64,000 nucleotides of DNA from Daejeonella sp. (GTDB lineage Bacteria > Bacteroidota > Bacteroidia > Sphingobacteriales > Sphingobacteriaceae). Below the pieces are notes generated by a model, which was not told where the DNA came from, ran no database searches, and saw only the letters and a list, made by a program, of their open reading frames with translations. How positions within the stretch are numbered: position 1 is the first letter of the stretch; each line of letters begins with the position of its first letter. The stretch is from contig NZ_JAFEIG010000015.1 of assembly GCF_017495225.1 (NCBI RefSeq), forward strand, positions 35,957 through 99,956, given 5' to 3'. Positions 8,986-16,886 of this stretch are shown piece after piece. Made by a program: the position numbers and the translations under genes.

Positions 8986-9115
8986 GAGATAACGATATTT
9001 ATTATGCTCAAGATAAAATTTATATGGGATAAATAAAAAGATTAGATTTTTTGCCAGTCAATTTTTCAAATAATATTTTAATTCCGTTTTTTATCCCAAT
9101 CTTTGTATGGATAAA

Positions 9116-9511
9116 ATGAAAAAGCTTGTAATCACCATATTAGCAATTTTTTACCTAGGTGTTTCATCTGGCGCAAGCCTGCATGTTCACCATTGTATGG
9201 GTGAGCTTGTTGAATGGGGATTTTCTGATAATAGTGTAGATGATGAGGGCAAATGCACCAATTGTGGCATGAAGCAAGGCAATTCTGAGCTTTGTTGTAA
9301 AACTCAGAAACAAGAATTTAAGCTAAAAGATAGCTATAAAGCTCCCTTAAATGTCATTCATTTTCAGTCTTTTGCTTTATTAGCACAAACTTATCCTGAA
9401 CATAAAATTTTAGCAAAAACTAAGGCTCCTGCTGATGATTTTGTGCAAATATCTGTCCCGCCCTCGGATAAAACCCCAACATTTATTCGGAATTGTAATT
9501 TCCGTATTTGA
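9116..9511 (+). CDS. HYC_CC_PP family protein
   Basis: Signal-like N-terminus, HHCMG, CTNC, LCCK, VPP near the C-terminus; upstream of metal-efflux genes; start could be 9107. Confidence 0.8.
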   Translation: MKKLVITILAIFYLGVSSGASLHVHHCMGELVEWGFSDNSVDDEGKCTNCGMKQGNSELCCKTQKQEFKLKDSYKAPLNVIHFQSFALLAQTYPEHKILAKTKAPADDFVQISVPPSDKTPTFIRNCNFRI

Positions 9512-9658: not shown

Positions 9659-9925
9659 ATGAAAAATTTATTCAATATCTGCGCAATTTTGCTTGTATTT
9701 TCTTGGGCATCTTGTACAAGTTCAGAAAAGCCTGTTGAGGCAAGTACTGATACAGTCACACATCACCAATCACATGCAGTGTATACTTGTCCGATGCACC
9801 CAGAAGTCATAAGCGACAAACCAGGAATTTGCCCTGAATGTAAAATGGACCTAGTTGCAAAAGTCGATGGGCCATCAACAAGCGATTCTACTGTTAAAGC
9901 ACATCACGATAAACACCAACACTAA
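9659..9925 (+). CDS. Heavy-metal-binding-domain lipoprotein
   Basis: Lipobox WASC, YTCPMHP..PGICPECKMDLV, His-rich ends. Confidence 0.88.
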   Translation: MKNLFNICAILLVFSWASCTSSEKPVEASTDTVTHHQSHAVYTCPMHPEVISDKPGICPECKMDLVAKVDGPSTSDSTVKAHHDKHQH

Positions 9926-9930
9926 GCACG

Positions 9931-11235
9931 ATGGTTGAGAAAATCATTTCATTTTCACTGCGTAACCGCTTCATTGTACTGCTTTTTGCAGCTGCTATTT
10001 TTACTTGGGGAATATTCTCTATGAAATCTAGCAAGATTGATGCGATACCGGATTTGTCTGAAAATCAGGTTATTGTATTTACAGAATGGATGGGTAGGAG
10101 TCCTCAAATTATTGAAGACCAGATTACTTACCCTTTAGTTACAAATCTTCAGGGCTTACCTAAGGTTAAATATGTTCGAGCAAATTCCATGTTTGGAATG
10201 AGCTTCATTTACATCATTTTTGAGGATGATGTGGATGTATATTGGGCTCGTGCTAGAGTGCTTGAGCGGCTCAATACTGTGACTAATAGCCTTCCAGATG
10301 GTGTTAGTCCGACAATTGGCCCCGATGGCACTGGAGTAGGTCATGTACTGTGGTACACCCTTGATGCCCCTGGGATGGATTTAGGGGAGCAGCGTGCCGT
10401 GCAAGACTGGTACATCAAATTTGCTTTACAAAATGTACAGGGTGTAAGTGAAATTGCTTCCTTTGGCGGATTTCAAAAGCAGTATCAAATTAGTATTGAT
10501 CCAGATAAGTTAAGTTATTATAAATTAACTATTCAGGATGTGATGCGGGCCGTAAAAAGTAATAATAATGAAGCTGGTGGTCGGAAATTTGAGATGAGTG
10601 GGATTGCTTACATCATCAAAACAACGGGTTATTTAAAGTCGCTTGATGAAATCGGTAATCTGCCAATAAGAACACAAAACTCCATCCCCATTAAGGTTAG
10701 TGATATTGGTACCGTTCAAATGGCTGGCGAAAGTCGCTTAGGTATTTTCGACTATAATGGTGAGGGTGAAGCAGTTGGTGGCATTGTGGTTTTACGTTAT
10801 GGTGAAAATGCCAATGAAGTTATTAAGCGAGTAAAAACAAAGATGGATGAGGTGAGCAAGGGACTTCCTGAAGGAATGAAATTTACCATTGTTTACGATA
10901 GAGGAGAACTGATAGAAGAGTCGATTTCATCTATTAAAACAACATTAATTGAAGAAATGATAGTTGTTTCACTCATTGTTATGCTTTTTCTTTTACACTG
11001 GCGAAGTGCAATTAGCATTATTATTCAGATTCCTATTACGATTGCGGCAAGTTTCATTGTGCTAAATGCCTTTGATATTTCATCCAATATCATGTCCCTA
11101 ACGGGGATAGCGCTTGCCATAGGGGTAATTGTTGATAATGGAATTATTATGGCCGAAAATTCATACAAAAACCTGGCTACAAGGCAAGCCGAACTTAATG
11201 AACAAAGAAAAGGAGGGAACTCACATGTGGTTTAA
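9931..11235 (+). CDS. cusA: CusA/CzcA-family RND permease, N-terminal part (TM1-TM4)
   Basis: DAIPDLSENQVIV, TYPL, GPDGTGVG, GVIVDNG (TM4 Asp); ends after TM4. Confidence 0.88.
   Translation: MVEKIISFSLRNRFIVLLFAAAIFTWGIFSMKSSKIDAIPDLSENQVIVFTEWMGRSPQIIEDQITYPLVTNLQGLPKVKYVRANSMFGMSFIYIIFEDDVDVYWARARVLERLNTVTNSLPDGVSPTIGPDGTGVGHVLWYTLDAPGMDLGEQRAVQDWYIKFALQNVQGVSEIASFGGFQKQYQISIDPDKLSYYKLTIQDVMRAVKSNNNEAGGRKFEMSGIAYIIKTTGYLKSLDEIGNLPIRTQNSIPIKVSDIGTVQMAGESRLGIFDYNGEGEAVGGIVVLRYGENANEVIKRVKTKMDEVSKGLPEGMKFTIVYDRGELIEESISSIKTTLIEEMIVVSLIVMLFLLHWRSAISIIIQIPITIAASFIVLNAFDISSNIMSLTGIALAIGVIVDNGIIMAENSYKNLATRQAELNEQRKGGNSHVV
11211..11216 (+). promoter_or_regulatory. Shine-Dalgarno-like site for the second CusA half
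   Basis: AGGAGG, 8 nt before ATG 11225. Confidence 0.5.
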
Positions 11236-13168
11236 GAAGAAAAATTCTTTTTCTGGCAAGGACGATGATTATGTAAAGCTATCTAGTGAAGAGCGCTTGA
11301 GTATCATAGAGAAAGCCTGTAAACAGGTCTCAAGAGGTGTATTTTACTCCACCATCATAATTATTGCTTCATTTTTGCCGGTTTTTTTATTAACTGGTCA
11401 GGAAGGGAAATTGTTCCATCCTTTGGCTTATACCAAGACATTTATTTTGGTAATTGATGCCATTTTGGTACTCACTTTAGCCCCTGTAATTATTTCCTTT
11501 TTTATGAAGGGACGTTTCCGTCAGGAGCATGAAAACCCCATTAATAGGGGAATGGAGCGTGTTTATTTGCCAATTATCCGTACTTGTATCCGAAATAGAA
11601 AAACCACACTAGGCATCAATATCCTTGCTTTGATTGTTAGTGTGCCGATGTTAATGAGTTTGGGTCGTGAGTTTATGCCTCCTCTTGATGAGCAGTCGGT
11701 GCTTTTTATGCCGGTAACCTTACCCGATGTTTCCAATGGTGAGATTAAGCGTATTCTTCAAGTTCAAGATAAGCTTATAAAATCTGTCCCAGAGGTAGAT
11801 CATGTACTTGGTAAGGCGGGGAGGGCAAGTACAGCCACAGATAATTCGCCAATTAGCATGATTGAAACGATTATCGCTTTAAAGCCTAAGAGTGAATGGC
11901 GGCCAGGCATCACCAAGAAGGATATTATCAATGAATTGGATGCTAAACTTCAAATTCCAGGTGTGGTTAATGGTTGGACGCAACCCATCATAAATCGTAT
12001 AAATATGCTTTCTACCGGAATTAGAACGGATGTGGGATTGAAGGTTTACGGTCAAGATTTGAATCAGATCAATACTATTTCGCATGAGGTTCAACATATT
12101 TTGCAGGGTATTGATGGTGTAAAAGATCTCTATGTGGAGCCAGTTACGGGTGGCAAATACCTTGAAATTGATATCAAGCGCGATCAGCTAGAGCGTTACG
12201 GGTTAACTGTTGACGATGTGAATGCTACCGTTGAAACTGCTATCGGGGGTAGCCCTTTTGCTTCAACTATTGAAGGCAGAAAGCGTTTTAATGTCCAATT
12301 GCGCCTTGGTGAAGATTTTCGTAATAGCCTAGATAAACTGAAAAGGATTCCACTTGTTTCGCCAGATGCTGGAACTATTCCACTTTCTGCTGTTAGCGAT
12401 ATTCGATTTGTGGATGGTCCGCCTATGATAACCTCAGAAAATGCGATTTTACGAGGAGCAGTAATGTTTAATGTGCGTGATCGTGATCTTGGCAATACCG
12501 TGCAAGAGGCCATAGATAAGCTGAACAAAGATTTAAAGTTGCCAGGTGGCTATTTTGTGGAGTGGAGTGGTCAGTATGAGAATTTATTGCGTGGACAAAA
12601 AACTTTACTTTACATACTTCCAATAGTGTTATTTATCATTTTTCTTGCCCTTTATCTCGCATTTAAATCAATCAGAGAAGCATTCTTAAGCTTGGTGACT
12701 ATACCCTTTGCCTTGATTGGGGGAGTGTTTTTAGTTTATTTCTGGGGAGTAAATCTTTCTGTTGCTGTGGCGGTAGGATTTATTGCACTCTTTGGTATCG
12801 CAGTTGAAACAGGGGTAGTGATGGTTATTTACTTGAATGATGCTATGAATCAGTTAATTGCATTGAAAGGAAACTCAAGTGAAACCATCAGCAAAGAAGA
12901 CTTACGCGAGTATGTAATTATGGGTGCAGCTAAGAGGCTAAGGCCTAAAATTATGACTGTTTGTGTGGCTTTATTCGGTTTAATACCTGTGTTATGGTCG
13001 GGAGGAGTGGGTAGCGATGTGATGCAGCCCATTGTTTTACCTATGATTGGAGGGGTTTTAACCTCATCTACTCATATTTTATTGGTTACTCCACTCATAT
13101 TTTTAATGACTAAGGAGTATGAATTAAGAAAATTTGGAAAATTGGAGGTTCATGATGTTAAACATTAA
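11225..13168 (+). CDS. cusA: CusA/CzcA-family RND permease, C-terminal part (TM5-TM12), 647 aa
   Basis: FLPVFLLTGQEGKLF, LFMP / SMIET / NMLSTG (Met triad and Glu as in E. coli CusA), RLRPKIMT. Confidence 0.88.
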   Translation: MWFKKKNSFSGKDDDYVKLSSEERLSIIEKACKQVSRGVFYSTIIIIASFLPVFLLTGQEGKLFHPLAYTKTFILVIDAILVLTLAPVIISFFMKGRFRQEHENPINRGMERVYLPIIRTCIRNRKTTLGINILALIVSVPMLMSLGREFMPPLDEQSVLFMPVTLPDVSNGEIKRILQVQDKLIKSVPEVDHVLGKAGRASTATDNSPISMIETIIALKPKSEWRPGITKKDIINELDAKLQIPGVVNGWTQPIINRINMLSTGIRTDVGLKVYGQDLNQINTISHEVQHILQGIDGVKDLYVEPVTGGKYLEIDIKRDQLERYGLTVDDVNATVETAIGGSPFASTIEGRKRFNVQLRLGEDFRNSLDKLKRIPLVSPDAGTIPLSAVSDIRFVDGPPMITSENAILRGAVMFNVRDRDLGNTVQEAIDKLNKDLKLPGGYFVEWSGQYENLLRGQKTLLYILPIVLFIIFLALYLAFKSIREAFLSLVTIPFALIGGVFLVYFWGVNLSVAVAVGFIALFGIAVETGVVMVIYLNDAMNQLIALKGNSSETISKEDLREYVIMGAAKRLRPKIMTVCVALFGLIPVLWSGGVGSDVMQPIVLPMIGGVLTSSTHILLVTPLIFLMTKEYELRKFGKLEVHDVKH

Positions 13169-14402
13169 AAAAATAGGGTTAATTGTGCTTTTTATGAGCT
13201 CTCGACTTGCTATTGGGCAGGATAAAATGAGCTTGGAGCAGATATTTGAGGAGATAAAATCTAAAAACATCGGACTAAAATCTTATGCTAGTCGTATTCA
13301 AAGTAAGGATGCAAAAGTAGAAGGTGCAAGTGCTTGGATGGCACCTATGGTAGGAGCTGGTACATTTATGACACCTTACCCTTTTCAGGGGATGGCTGGA
13401 GAAAATGATCGTGGTGCTTTGATGCTTACCGCTGAACAAGAAATTCCAAATCCCGCGAAGGTAAAAGCTAAGAGGGAATACCTTCAAATTCAATCTAAGG
13501 GAGATATTTATGCTCAATCTGAGCTTTTTAACCAATTTAAAGCAAGAGCAAGGCAGCTTTATTTCGGTTTATTGATTGATTATAAAAGGATTTATTATCA
13601 AGAAGAGAATAAACGCATCATGGAAACCATGATGAAGCTTGCGGAGATCCGTTATCCTTTTAATCAGGGCGGGTTAAACCAGGTTTTTAAGGCTGAAGGA
13701 CGTGCTTTTGAGTCGGAGAATATGATTTTAATGACTAAATCTAGTATTCGCTCTAAAAAAATCACACTCAATACCTTGATGAATCGGTCGGCCGAAATGG
13801 ATCTACAAATAGATACTTCATTTCAAGTTAATTTTATTCCTAAGGCGGATTTAGATACTGCCTATTTTGCTAGTTCCAGAAGTGATATTTTAAATATGCA
13901 GCATGAAATTAATGTCATGAAAAAAAATATCAACCTGATGAAACAAGAAGCTAAGCCTGATTTTAGGTTACGCTTTGATCACATGTCGAACTATTCGGCA
14001 ATGATGCCAAGGCAATTTACTGTGATGGGAATGCTCTCTATTCCGATTGTTCCTTGGTCTTCAAAAATGTATAAATCGGAAATAAAATCAATGAATTTTG
14101 AGCAGGAAGCGATGCGTCAGCAGAAGGCAGCAATGTTGACCGATATGTTAGGTATGACCCGCAGCATGGAAAGTGAACTTACATTGATGCAGAAGCAATT
14201 AGCTAATTATGAGCAAAGGATTGTGCCTTCTCTACAGAAATATTTGAAGGTTTCAATTTTGTCTTACCAAGAAAATAAATCGGATTTAAATACGGTAATT
14301 GATGCTTGGGAGGCTCTAAATATGGCACAAATGAATTATCTGAATCAATTAGAGAAATTTTATCAAATGATTGTTGATTATGAGAAAAATATTGAAAGGT
14401 AG
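13152..14402 (+). CDS. TolC/CusC-family outer-membrane efflux protein, Met-rich
   Basis: Signal peptide, helical OEP pattern, KPDFRLRF..GMLSIP; overlaps the stop of the CusA C-half. Confidence 0.85.
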   Translation: MMLNIKKIGLIVLFMSSRLAIGQDKMSLEQIFEEIKSKNIGLKSYASRIQSKDAKVEGASAWMAPMVGAGTFMTPYPFQGMAGENDRGALMLTAEQEIPNPAKVKAKREYLQIQSKGDIYAQSELFNQFKARARQLYFGLLIDYKRIYYQEENKRIMETMMKLAEIRYPFNQGGLNQVFKAEGRAFESENMILMTKSSIRSKKITLNTLMNRSAEMDLQIDTSFQVNFIPKADLDTAYFASSRSDILNMQHEINVMKKNINLMKQEAKPDFRLRFDHMSNYSAMMPRQFTVMGMLSIPIVPWSSKMYKSEIKSMNFEQEAMRQQKAAMLTDMLGMTRSMESELTLMQKQLANYEQRIVPSLQKYLKVSILSYQENKSDLNTVIDAWEALNMAQMNYLNQLEKFYQMIVDYEKNIER

Positions 14403-15696
14403 TATCGGCTTTTTTCTTGTCTTGGGATTTATGCTTTCGGCTTGTAATCAAAACAAGGAAGCTACATCAACCATTATCTACACATGCCCAATGCATCCTG
14501 AAATTTTAAATGAAGGACCAGGCATTTGCCCAATTTGTAAAATGGATTTGGTACCAAGAGATGCTGGTGGATCACATGGTTCAGCTGATAAATCTCTAAA
14601 TAGTTTAGTAAAGCCTAGTAATGAGTTAGTTATCTCAGGAATCAAGACTGTGAAAGCACAAAGTGGATTGCGGAATGTAGATTTAATCTTGAAAGGAGTA
14701 ATAAATTACAATTCTAATCAGTGGAAAACCGTTTCTGCTCGAGTTAGTGGTCGCATAGAACGTTTATATGTAAAATATGGCTATGAACAGGTAAAAAAAG
14801 GACAGAAAATAATGGATATTTATAGTCCCGATTTGCTAAATGCTCAACAAGAACTACTTTTTCTTAAAAATAATTCAGAACCTGAATTATTAGAATCCGC
14901 CAAGAAAAAATTACTGTTTTTAGGCTTATCGCAACAGCAAATAAATCAAGTTTTGCGTAGCGGAATTATAAATCCTACCGTCTCCGTTTATAGTCCCTAT
15001 TCTGGATATGTCGCCGAATTGGAACTAAATAATATGCCTGATTCTAGTCCCGCAGCTCAAACCGGAGGTACCAGAATAAGTACAAATAATGCTTCTGGAA
15101 TGAATGGGATGGGTTCTGGGACTAACTCTGAAGCGATTCCGACGGTAAAATCAATTAGTACAGGACAAGCACTTCAGATTAGAGAGGGCCAATATGTGAA
15201 TGCGGGACAGAAATTATTTAGTTTGATAAATACAGATCAAGTTTGGGTTGAATTTTTTGCAGATGCCAAGCAATTGCAGTCCTTTAAAAGTGGGACTAAT
15301 ATTAAAATTAATGCAATTGATGTTGCTGATCAGGAAATAGAAATTAAGGTTAGCCTTGTGCAGCCTTATTATCGTGAGGGTGTAAATTATTCATTAATTA
15401 AAGCCAATTTACCCAATGGGAGTCGTTTGTGGAAGGTTGGTCAACTCATTTCTGTTCATAAAGAAACTGAGTTAAATGGGAATTGGGTTCCAAAAACAGC
15501 TGTTTTGCAAATGGGAAAAAAACATATTGTCTTCTTGAATCGGGACTCTGCATTTGTTCCTGTTTATGTAGATGTAAAAGCAATGGCAAACGATTGGATT
15601 GATGTTGGAGATAGTTTAAAAGCAGATCAAAAAATAGCCATCAATGCATGGTTTTTAGTCGATACCGAAAGTTTTATTAAAGCAGAACGTTTATAA
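14380..15696 (+). CDS. CusB-like membrane-fusion protein 1 with N-terminal heavy-metal-binding domain
   Basis: Lipobox LSAC, YTCPMHP..CPICKMDLV, GRIERLYV, YSPDL, Ser/Gly/Met-rich insertion. Confidence 0.87.
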   Translation: MRKILKGSIGFFLVLGFMLSACNQNKEATSTIIYTCPMHPEILNEGPGICPICKMDLVPRDAGGSHGSADKSLNSLVKPSNELVISGIKTVKAQSGLRNVDLILKGVINYNSNQWKTVSARVSGRIERLYVKYGYEQVKKGQKIMDIYSPDLLNAQQELLFLKNNSEPELLESAKKKLLFLGLSQQQINQVLRSGIINPTVSVYSPYSGYVAELELNNMPDSSPAAQTGGTRISTNNASGMNGMGSGTNSEAIPTVKSISTGQALQIREGQYVNAGQKLFSLINTDQVWVEFFADAKQLQSFKSGTNIKINAIDVADQEIEIKVSLVQPYYREGVNYSLIKANLPNGSRLWKVGQLISVHKETELNGNWVPKTAVLQMGKKHIVFLNRDSAFVPVYVDVKAMANDWIDVGDSLKADQKIAINAWFLVDTESFIKAERL

Positions 15697-16886
15697 TGAA
15701 AAGAAATATATTAATTGGTTTTTTCCTGCTTTTTGTAGGTTTTTTGCTATATTCATGCAAAGATACGAAAAAAGATAAACATGCTCATGCCGGCACTTAT
15801 ACCTGCCCCATGCATCCTCAAATCATTAATAATGCACCCGGTTCTTGTCCGATTTGCGGAATGGACCTTGTACCAGTAAATGCGGCTGGAAGTAAGAATG
15901 AATTGATGTTAAGCGACAGTCAGGTTCAGTTAGCTAATATTCGAACCATGTCAATTGCGACTTCCTCATTTAGTACTTCCAAGGTTTTAAATGGTCGATT
16001 AATCACTAATCCAGAACGTACTGCCACTGTATCTAGCCGTTACTCCGGATGGATTGAACGATTGTTTATAAAGGAAACTGGAATTAAGATTAGTAAAGGA
16101 CAAGCTCTTTTTCAAATCTATAGTGAGCAAATACAAACCTTACAACAAGATTATTTACTTCAAATTAAGCAAGCCGCTGCATTTCCTAATGAAAAGATTT
16201 ACAGCACGATGCGGAATGCGGCAAAAAACAAATTGCGCTTATTTGGAATGAGTGATTCGCAAATAAAATCTTTAGAAAATGGGACTAAAACATCCCCATT
16301 ACTCACCGTTTTTTCAAGTGAATCTGGTACGGTTACAGAACTGAATATTTCTGAGGGGCAGTATGTTTCTGAGGGGACTCAAGTATTAAAATTAGAGAAT
16401 TTTGATCAGTTGTGGCTAGAGATGGATGTCTATCCTTCTGAAATTTCTGACATTAAAATTGGGACTAAAGTTAAGGCATTAGTAAGTGGTTTAGGAAATG
16501 AAGAACAATCTCTTGTAATTGATTTTATATCTCCACAGATAGATCCATCAACTCAAATTTTGAAGGTACGTGCTCCAATTAAAAATTCAGGGAATTTACA
16601 GGCAGGAATGCAGGCGAGCGTCTTTTTGCCAGTTTCAGAGATTAGGGATGCGATGAGTTTACCGATGGATGCGCTTGTCCGCGATGAGCGAGGCTCACAT
16701 GTTTGGGTTAAAGTCGGGAAAAACACCTTTTCTCCTCGAATTGTTAAAACTGGAGCAGAAAATGAGGATCAAATAATAATTCTTTCAGGATTGGAAGGTG
16801 TAAAAGAGGTTGTTATCAGTGGGGCATATTTATTATCGAGTGAGTTTTTATTAAAAAAGGGGATGGATCCAATGCTTAAAAAATAG
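15696..16886 (+). CDS. CusB-like membrane-fusion protein 2 with N-terminal heavy-metal-binding domain
   Basis: Lipobox LYSC, YTCPMHP..CPICGMDLV, GWIERL; start overlaps the previous stop (TAATG). Confidence 0.87.
   Translation: MKRNILIGFFLLFVGFLLYSCKDTKKDKHAHAGTYTCPMHPQIINNAPGSCPICGMDLVPVNAAGSKNELMLSDSQVQLANIRTMSIATSSFSTSKVLNGRLITNPERTATVSSRYSGWIERLFIKETGIKISKGQALFQIYSEQIQTLQQDYLLQIKQAAAFPNEKIYSTMRNAAKNKLRLFGMSDSQIKSLENGTKTSPLLTVFSSESGTVTELNISEGQYVSEGTQVLKLENFDQLWLEMDVYPSEISDIKIGTKVKALVSGLGNEEQSLVIDFISPQIDPSTQILKVRAPIKNSGNLQAGMQASVFLPVSEIRDAMSLPMDALVRDERGSHVWVKVGKNTFSPRIVKTGAENEDQIIILSGLEGVKEVVISGAYLLSSEFLLKKGMDPMLKK

Follow-up and report, generated by a model that had tools for sequence, protein, structure and literature searches.

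A CusA-like permease apparently encoded as two genes, with a conserved split after its fourth transmembrane helix, in Bacteroidia

An RND permease is usually described as one chain of ~1,050 amino acids, and its mechanism is framed in terms of two covalently linked six-helix repeats. In a 64,000-nucleotide stretch of a Daejeonella sp. genome (hereafter the window), two overlapping genes are together collinear with one such permease, which raises the question of whether they are the remains of a broken gene, the template for one recoded polypeptide, the source of two unrelated products, or a pump built from two chains. The initial annotation of this locus, made from the DNA alone, favored a functional two-chain protomer over a pseudogene. 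That preference is supported by the conserved position of the cut, the varied junctions at which it occurs, and dN/dS values of 0.01-0.06, with chain assembly and transport as predicted steps. The product of the locus is very probably an HME-RND efflux permease for Cu(I)/Ag(I), of the CusA type, made as two separately translated membrane proteins.

The first gene, cusA-N (ORF1, 9931..11235 of the window, on the + strand like all features described here), encodes 434 aa that run from TM1 to TM4, with the first periplasmic loop (which in CusA holds PN1/PN2/DN) between TM1 and TM2, and finish in 16 aa of cytoplasmic tail; the stop codon is TAA at 11233-11235. The second gene, cusA-C (ORF2, 11225..13168), encodes 647 aa that start with a basic head of 18 aa and continue through TM5-TM12, with the second periplasmic loop (which in CusA holds PC1/PC2/DC) between TM7 and TM8. 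ORF2 lies in the +1 frame relative to ORF1, and its ATG at 11225 creates an 11-nt overlap with the end of ORF1 (11225..11235). The ORF1 product ends in QRKGGNSHVV and the ORF2 product begins with MWFKKKNSFSGKDDD. This two-gene layout, as originally described with its coordinates, overlap, frame, and both tails, was confirmed on the sequence. A Shine-Dalgarno (SD)-like GGAGG at 11212..11216, inside the codons for Gly429-Gly430, precedes the ORF2 ATG by 8 nt. Against the NCBIfam CusA/CzcA model TIGR00914, ORF1 accounts for profile positions 1-430 and ORF2 for 431-1036, with neither gap nor overlap. The two halves score 464.2 and 624.7 bits, which sum to 1,089 bits, and the curated cut-off is 701.45. 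In place of a single polypeptide of ~1,000-1,100 aa scoring above this cut-off, the locus therefore contains two genes that each score below it.

Alignment with Escherichia coli CusA pairs ORF1 residues 1-418 with CusA 1-421, and ORF2 residues 19-627 with CusA 430-1036, which places the cut at CusA 421-430 in the TM4-TM5 cytoplasmic loop. Hydropathy analysis, with four TM segments in the N chain and eight in the C chain, agrees with this placement, as the initial annotation had proposed. The 12 helices and large TM1-2 and TM7-8 periplasmic loops typical of HME-RND permeases are found only when both chains are taken together. At the junction, the 16-aa tail and the 18-aa head together amount to 34 residues, against 8 at this place in E. 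coli CusA, and the joined loop would therefore be ~26 aa longer. An earlier estimate of 40 residues against 16 had the difference roughly right, with absolute numbers that hinge on where the loop ends are chosen. The metal-site residues M573, M623, E625, and M672 of CusA align with M162 (11708-11710), M212 (11858-11860), E214 (11864-11866), and M261 (12005-12007) of the C chain, forming a putative Cu(I)/Ag(I) site (span 11708..12007). The proton-relay residues of CusA, D405 in TM4, E939 in TM10, and K984 in TM11, are divided between the chains: the alignment equates D405 with the invariant Asp402 of the N chain (11134..11136), and E939 and K984 with E528 (12806-12808) and K575 (12947-12949) of the C chain (span 12806..12949). 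The alignment thus bears out the claim that the methionine triad and its glutamate are intact on the C half and the TM4 aspartate on the N half.

The two genes sit within a tightly packed operon. Its first gene (9659..9925), 5 nt upstream of cusA-N, encodes a lipoprotein of 88 aa whose heavy-metal-binding domain carries CPMHPE..CPxC. Downstream of cusA-C, a second overlapping junction (13144..13168) repeats the arrangement of the first, with GGAGG at 13144-13148 followed after 6 nt by an ATG at 13155 and a 14-nt overlap with the cusA-C stop. The gene that begins there (13155..14402, ~415 aa) occupies the outer-membrane-factor position, a role assigned from operon position only, and matches none of the NCBIfam models. 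It is followed by two membrane-fusion (adaptor) genes at 14380-15696 and 15696-16886 (span 14380..16886) that overlap at TAATG. Both match CusB/CzcB/RND_mfp models in the NCBIfam profile search, and each product carries an N-terminal CPMHP metal-binding domain. Both expected partners of an HME-RND permease, a membrane-fusion protein and, by position, an outer-membrane factor, are thus encoded beside it; of the operon genes scanned, none was noted as a homologue of CusF.

The initial annotation had called for a search for a conserved split point across Bacteroidota, and had suggested that short and long CusA pairs occur in other members of the phylum. The cut is at the same position in 19/19 same-genus orthologues, in all but one fused copy among ~95 family-level matches at ≥57% identity, and in 53 of the 57 class-level matches, which bears out that suggestion. 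Among named loci, which span Pedobacter, Sphingobacterium, Mucilaginibacter, Chitinophaga, Flavobacterium, Pontibacter, Hymenobacter, Cytophaga, and others, 76/80 share it. The cut persists from 96% down to 52% identity and across four orders (Sphingobacteriales, Cytophagales, Chitinophagales, and Flavobacteriales). The identical junction occurs in at least 16 distinct clusters of 434-aa proteins at 93-96% identity from independent sources and in independent metagenome-assembled genomes (L002, L083), and it is shared by more than 100 protein clusters with a length of exactly 434 aa. A search of 50%-identity representatives with the N half gave true short chains and contig-edge fragments side by side, among them, at 42-44% identity, P0174 (460 aa) and P0177 (458 aa).

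The DNA at the junction is unrelated between clades. The halves may meet at an 8-14 nt overlap, at ATGA, TAATG, or TAAnATG, at an in-frame stop followed by ATG, or across gaps of ≤58 nt. In four genomes a gene lies between the halves, either one for a 73-78 aa metal-binding lipoprotein or a 194-aa ORF; in L023-L025 the inserted lipoprotein gene is like the one that opens the operon in the window. Two genomes, G391 and G496, have the halves permuted, with the C half 4 kb upstream of the N half and still in one operon, and the halves share an operon in all loci apart from contig-edge cases. A single recoded chain cannot account for these unlike junctions, intervening genes, and permuted orders.

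In a tree of 76 sequences, obtained by a quick search with SH-aLRT support only, all 57 split copies fall in one Bacteroidia clade (100% SH-aLRT), within which seven fused copies are nested at six places. Its sister lineages belong to other classes of Bacteroidota and contain fused copies only. At least seven changes are needed on this tree, one fission and six re-fusions. The tree thus points to a single fission, on the stem leading to a CusA clade specific to Bacteroidia, with about six re-fusions afterwards. The natural re-fusions yield a CusA of normal length, and one of them (L034) retains both the N-tail and the C-head motifs. Continuous relatives, whose existence with the same loop length would have argued against a two-chain pump, are confined to a few nested re-fusions and to more distant homologues in other classes with short loops. 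We calculated dN/dS with our own Nei-Gojobori code for closer pairs, because saturation of synonymous sites makes comparisons of the window with most orthologues unusable. The values are 0.01-0.06 for both halves in 11 pairs. The comparisons indicate that strong purifying selection has maintained the split, that horizontal transfer has spread it, and that re-fusion has only rarely reversed it.

A pseudogene could have arisen through a recent inactivating frameshift, or the break could be an indel introduced by sequencing or assembly. Neighboring ORFs that lie in different frames but together match one protein collinearly, as in the window, are the usual signature of a frameshift, and runs of A and G lie close to the junction. 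However, an error would not recur identically in independent assemblies and in the many clusters of exactly 434 aa, or at one position across four orders, and neither the intact catalytic residues nor the low dN/dS of both halves, even with synonymous sites saturated, fits a decaying gene. The comparative data refute this explanation, to which we assign a negligible probability. A programmed +1 frameshift near the ORF1 stop could instead produce a single full-length CusA, with GGAGG as a stimulatory element as in prfB. The +1 frame of ORF2, the SD-like motif upstream of the junction, and an ORF2 frame that in the window stays open for 107 nt upstream would suit such an event, and Bacteroidia retain the prfB +1 site with its SD (PMC10798248). 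However, in relatives, stop codons close the ORF2 frame 11-38 nt upstream of the ORF1 stop, and the last sense codon differs among orthologues (GTT, GAA, GAG, AAT, GAT, AAC), so there is no conserved slippery site. At the E. coli prfB site the stimulatory SD is spaced by ~3 nt, whereas GGAGG here lies 13 nt from the last sense codon and at an ideal 8-nt spacing for the ATG. Other clades, moreover, show all frame relations, in-frame stops, stop-containing gaps, intervening genes, and permuted order. Programmed frameshifting was therefore rejected as very improbable on the grounds of spacing, slippery site, and layout.

It is also conceivable that both products exist without combining into a CusA-like protomer, with one of them acting alone in the pump or each having a separate role. 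The 4-kb separation of the halves in two genomes would allow this, and halves could in principle be mixed where a genome has two or three split paralogues (G527, G013, G019). However, because the cut follows TM4 of six, neither half is a complete RND repeat, and the relay residues are shared out over both chains. The halves also co-occur in one operon, permuted loci included and contig-edge cases aside, their dN/dS is equally very low, and re-fusion in nature restores a CusA of normal length. We consider separate functions improbable, if somewhat less so than frameshifting.

In the favored two-chain model, the 434-aa N chain would span the membrane with TM1-TM4, carry the first periplasmic loop, and end in the cytoplasm, and the 647-aa C chain would begin with a Lys-rich cytoplasmic head and continue through TM5-TM12 with the second periplasmic loop. 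The two chains would join in the membrane as one CusA-equivalent protomer, with TM5-TM6 of the C chain completing the first six-helix repeat and the porter domain assembled from the PN subdomains of the N chain and the PC subdomains of the C chain. The proton relay would cross the chain boundary, coupling Asp402 to Glu528 and Lys575, and the predicted three-methionine metal site would lie entirely on the C chain. Protomers would then trimerize and engage the products of the downstream genes, two adaptors and the outer-membrane factor. Within the operon, ORF2 would initiate at ATG 11225, 8 nt before the ORF1 stop, and termination-reinitiation coupling, the likely mechanism, would keep the chains near a 1:1 ratio. 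For substrate, assembly, stoichiometry, and use of ATG 11225 alike, we infer these features from sequence.

The closest well-characterized relative is CusA of the E. coli HME-RND system CusCFBA (PDB 3K07, 3NE5, 4DNT), to which the joined chains are collinear over the full length, with the methionine triad, E625, and D405/E939/K984 conserved. Both operons include adaptor and outer-membrane genes. In contrast to CusA, the Daejeonella permease consists of two polypeptides (434 + 647 aa) whose ~26 extra loop residues form two free tails, and, unlike CusCFBA, its operon encodes two adaptors that each have a CPMHP domain as well as a stand-alone metal-binding lipoprotein. SecD/SecF, a protein-export component of the RND superfamily, is encoded by two genes in E. 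coli and is fused in some bacteria, and it resembles CusA-N/C as an RND-superfamily member with two genes in some lineages and one in others. SecDF is listed as TC 2.A.6.4 (PMC6281302). However, SecD/SecF is cut between the six-helix repeats (6 + 6, at TM6/TM7) and is not part of a tripartite efflux pump, whereas CusA-N/C is cut inside the first repeat (4 + 8, at TM4/TM5). MexB expressed as two halves is described as functional (Eda, Yoneyama and Nakae 2003, Biochemistry 42:7238, as cited in PMC4359379), but that split is artificial and separates six helices from six (6 + 6), lying after TM6 where the Ialpha helix has its N-terminal end, whereas the CusA-N/C split appears natural, ancient, asymmetric, and selected. 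In another Bacteroidota strain, an RB-TnSeq study mentions an RND pair with a CuCl2 phenotype and draws no link from that pair to a split pump (PMC13440311). The full-text literature searched holds no description of a split CusA/CzcA; subscription journals and TCDB fell mostly outside this scope, and an earlier description is possible.

A natural, ancient, and selectively maintained split inside the first repeat would mean that TM1-4 and TM5-12 can assemble even when inserted separately. It would provide a natural system for studying RND folding and assembly, and the coupling of TM4 to TM10/11 across a chain boundary. In annotation, such 'half' genes call for neither a pseudogene flag nor a count of two pumps. 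Surveys of metal resistance in Bacteroidota from soil and water will undercount or mis-score the family if they depend on full-length CusA models, since neither half reaches the curated cut-off.

The junction also bears on translation initiation. ATG 11225 is the sole ORF2 start conserved among orthologues, with an earlier candidate at TTG 11129, and the positions of GGAGG (11212-11216), ATG, and TAA give the layout of a coupled gene pair, in which an SD lies 5-10 nt before a start that overlaps the upstream stop. The GGA codon is present in 20/20 orthologues and is the sole single-codon column among 84 invariant four-fold-degenerate columns. GGAGG at SD-like spacing precedes only 0.7% of the long ORFs in this genome. 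Across clades, it is found at 28 of 35 junctions with an 8-14 nt overlap and at 1 of 99 others, counts that are phylogenetically non-independent and represent ~3-4 independent clades. The window as a whole contains 58 GGAGG matches, with 59 expected, and is not enriched; the signal is positional, not compositional. A role of GGAGG in initiation stands against reports that Bacteroidia ribosomes are SD-blind (PMC7797042, PMC9976891, PMC13000453) and sequester the anti-SD CCUCC (PMC7797042), and its conservation could serve a different purpose. The 16S rRNA of this genome retains the CCUCC tail. Strong, conserved SD-like GGAGG motifs are likewise known in Bacteroidia mRNAs from rpsU (bS21) and prfB of Flavobacterium johnsoniae (PMC9976891, PMC13000453, PMC10798248). 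Unlike those cases, GGAGG here lies within coding sequence at a stop/start overlap of an efflux operon, with a second copy at the next junction, and the two junctions offer a testable case of SD use beyond rpsU and prfB in reportedly SD-blind bacteria. The broadest reading, which we offer tentatively and consider rather unlikely in full, is of a large, horizontally mobile, Bacteroidia-wide Cu/Ag RND family with an obligate-heterodimer 4 + 8 protomer and a cross-chain relay, in which the Daejeonella/Pedobacter lineage sets the chain ratio by SD-assisted reinitiation at both junctions. If so, SD-blind ribosomes, or a bS21-free subpopulation of them, would use the anti-SD here. The GGAGG junction between the pump halves is conserved at the nucleotide level in the Daejeonella/Pedobacter lineage, and the second junction, with GGAGG and ATG 13155, is conserved in L063, L084, L085, L099, L101, L103, L131, L134, and L138.

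The CusA-type pump is encoded on the forward strand by two genes, cusA-N (positions 9931-11235; 434 aa, with its TAA stop at 11233-11235) and cusA-C (from the ATG at 11225 to 13168; 647 aa), the latter in the +1 frame and overlapping the former by 11 nt. The ORF listing and the raw sequence confirm this two-gene arrangement, which had been proposed in the initial annotation. Positions 1-430 of the NCBIfam CusA/CzcA model TIGR00914 are covered by the N chain and positions 431-1036 by the C chain. In alignments with the solved Escherichia coli CusA, the closest homologue, CusA residues 1-421 match residues 1-418 of the N chain, and CusA residues 430-1036 match residues 19-627 of the C chain. Therefore, a 16-aa tail on the N chain and an 18-aa head on the C chain stand in for 8 residues of the TM4-TM5 cytoplasmic loop, the region where the cut had been placed. 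Hydropathy gives four membrane segments in the N chain and eight in the C chain. The copper site lies entirely in the C chain, with M162, M212, E214, and M261 aligned with CusA M573, M623, E625, and M672. The predicted proton relay is shared out over the two chains, since D402 of the N chain aligns with CusA D405 and E528 and K575 of the C chain align with E939 and K984. All of the copper-site Met and Glu residues and the TM4 Asp previously assigned to the C and N halves, respectively, are thus present.

While E. coli CusA is a single chain, the present pump has two, and unlike the E. coli system its operon includes two adaptors bearing metal-binding domains and a stand-alone metal-binding lipoprotein. 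SecD and SecF show that an RND-superfamily protein can naturally be encoded by two genes, but there the cut separates the two repeats (6 + 6) and is not 4 + 8. MexB engineered with a cut after TM6 is cited as still functional (Eda et al, 2003, cited in PMC4359379), whereas the split described here is natural and 4 + 8. A search of open-access full text returned no description of an efflux RND permease that is naturally split 4 + 8. In public annotation the phenomenon is widespread, with each half named simply 'efflux RND transporter permease subunit'.

A sequencing error or a pseudogene could also produce two open frames, but both are ruled out by retention of the split across genus, family, and class and by low dN/dS in both halves. 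The same +1 arrangement occurs in 19 of 19 orthologues within the genus, Daejeonella of the Sphingobacteriaceae (78-96% identity). In these, the cusA-C frame is shut by stops at varying positions 11-38 nt upstream of the cusA-N stop, and therefore the ATG at -11 (-8 in one locus, L018) is the only conserved start. The length of exactly 434 aa is shared by more than 100 public protein clusters. Across 200 sampled genomes of the family, all of the ~95 matches at ≥57% identity, from 17 of 37 genera, have short open frames of 425-475 aa, the single exception being one fused copy. Of 57 matches at ≥52% identity in 400 genomes sampled from the class, 53 are split. The conserved split point sought among relatives was found, at one protein position. 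Among named loci, 76 of 80 are split, including those from Pedobacter, Sphingobacterium, Mucilaginibacter, Olivibacter, Chitinophaga, Flavobacterium, Pontibacter, Hymenobacter, Cytophaga, Adhaeribacter, Rufibacter, Larkinella, and Ohtaekwangia. By the Nei-Gojobori method, each half gives a dN/dS of 0.01-0.06 in all pairs with unsaturated dS. At the sequence level, the conserved cut and these ratios support the initial reading of a functional two-chain pump. In two relatives the C half is interrupted, with an open frame of 171 aa in L056 and two frames in L064; these loci could be true pseudogenes or result from errors in assembly.

The two frames could alternatively be joined during translation, by frameshifting or stop codon read-through. 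The protein is always cut after ENAYRHL.. and before ..EERLxIIEKSxKQVG, and the junction DNA depends on the clade: 8-14 nt overlaps, ATGA, TAATG, TAAnATG, an in-frame stop followed by ATG, or gaps of 2-58 nt. In three loci (L023, L024, and L025) a gene for a 73-78 aa metal-binding lipoprotein with a YQCPMHPEV..CPKC domain lies between the halves, and in one further genome a 194-aa ORF separates them. In the window, a similar lipoprotein gene (9659-9925) immediately precedes cusA-N, and a gene for a 134-aa HYC_CC_PP family protein (9107-9511; NF047658, score 33 bits, cut-off 28) lies upstream of the efflux operon. Two operons are permuted (L081, G391:C52:133300-142000, and L082, G496:C197:1-5800), with the order C half, outer-membrane factor, two adaptors, and then the N half ~4 kb downstream of the C half; L081 adds a small metal-binding protein gene before the N half. 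Neither frameshifting nor read-through can link halves across intervening genes or in permuted order, and gene order thus argues that the halves are separate genes, not one recoded gene. The E. coli prfB frameshift has a stimulatory spacing of ~3 nt. A prfB-like +1 frameshift in the window was rejected because the last sense codon of cusA-N varies among orthologues, and the GGAGG motif at the junction is 13 nt from that codon, far past stimulatory spacing, and at ideal spacing for the cusA-C ATG.

In the junction sequence, AAGGAGGGAACTCACATGTGGTTTAA, GGAGG is followed by 8 nt and the ATG, with the cusA-N stop 8 nt past the A of the ATG. The Gly429 codon is GGA in all 20 orthologues, with synonymous sites otherwise saturated, and is the sole single-codon column among 84 invariant four-fold-degenerate columns; Gly430 is GGA or GGG throughout. 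Only 0.7% of 2,133 long ORFs in this genome have GGAGG at SD-like spacing, and the sequence preceding starts is poor in G and rich in A, the usual Bacteroidia pattern. Among 134 adjacent split junctions, GGAGG occurs at 28 of the 35 that overlap by 8-14 nt vs 1 of the other 99. These junctions come from at least three distinct clades (the Daejeonella/Pedobacter group, L055/L057, and L069), so that the counts are not fully independent. The single codon at Gly429, the genomic rarity, and the tie to long overlaps provide evidence for selection on the motif. Ribosomes of Bacteroidia are reported to keep the anti-SD sequestered and not to respond to SD sequences, with rpsU and prfB as known exceptions (PMC7797042, PMC9976891, PMC13000453, PMC10798248). 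The 16S rRNA of this genome retains the CCUCC tail, and cusA-C would be translated by SD-assisted termination-reinitiation.

The same design recurs at the next junction (13144-13168), where GGAGG (13144-13148, forward strand) is followed by 6 nt and an ATG at 13155, giving a 14-nt overlap with the end of cusA-C. Here the motif lies within codons for Leu-Glu-Val (xTG GAG GTn). Nine relatives share it unchanged, among them six Pedobacter loci (L099, L101, L103, L131, L134, and L138) in which the N/C junction is a plain ATGA. The forward-strand ORF that begins there (13155-14402), in the outer-membrane-factor position, gave no NCBIfam match at E ≤ 0.001; relatives conserve it after cusA-C with 37-61% identity. 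Genome-wide, RGGAGG-N4-9-ATG leading an open frame of ≥55 aa occurs at only 31 sites. The first residues at two of these, C18(-):134629 and C8(-):26416, resemble ribosomal protein bS2 and a ribosome hibernation factor, which, if true, would fit the few SD-led Bacteroidia genes being translation-related.

In a maximum-likelihood tree of 76 proteins (concatenated halves or full-length sequences), all 57 split copies group in a single long-stemmed Bacteroidia clade (SH-aLRT support, 100%). The sister lineages, the best homologues from other Bacteroidota classes (51-58% identity), are all continuous proteins of ~1,045-1,130 aa with short loops; copies of the E. coli type, which are more distant, are likewise continuous. 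Seven fused copies occur at six places inside the split clade (L034, L032, L059, L037, L073, L092, and L153), and nested in this way they look like independent re-fusions; one fission followed by six re-fusions, or 7 changes, is the most parsimonious history. The long loop of L034 retains both the N-tail motif SEEQLKK and the C-head motif SWF..R..DPL, as expected of re-fusion, while the other fused copies have short loops. Families and orders are intermixed in the gene tree, indicating that the operon has been transferred horizontally.

Bacteroidia also hold continuous CusA/CzcA-like genes of unusual length, with open frames of ~1,270-1,300 aa and ~1,450 aa. This genome has one of 1,453 aa (G000:C8:325769-328873), and long forms are present in many relatives. 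One 434-aa N half (P0009), 96% identical to that in the window, has the NCBI title 'putative cation efflux system protein CusA-like [Daphnia sinensis]' and is almost certainly bacterial contamination of the Daphnia sinensis assembly.
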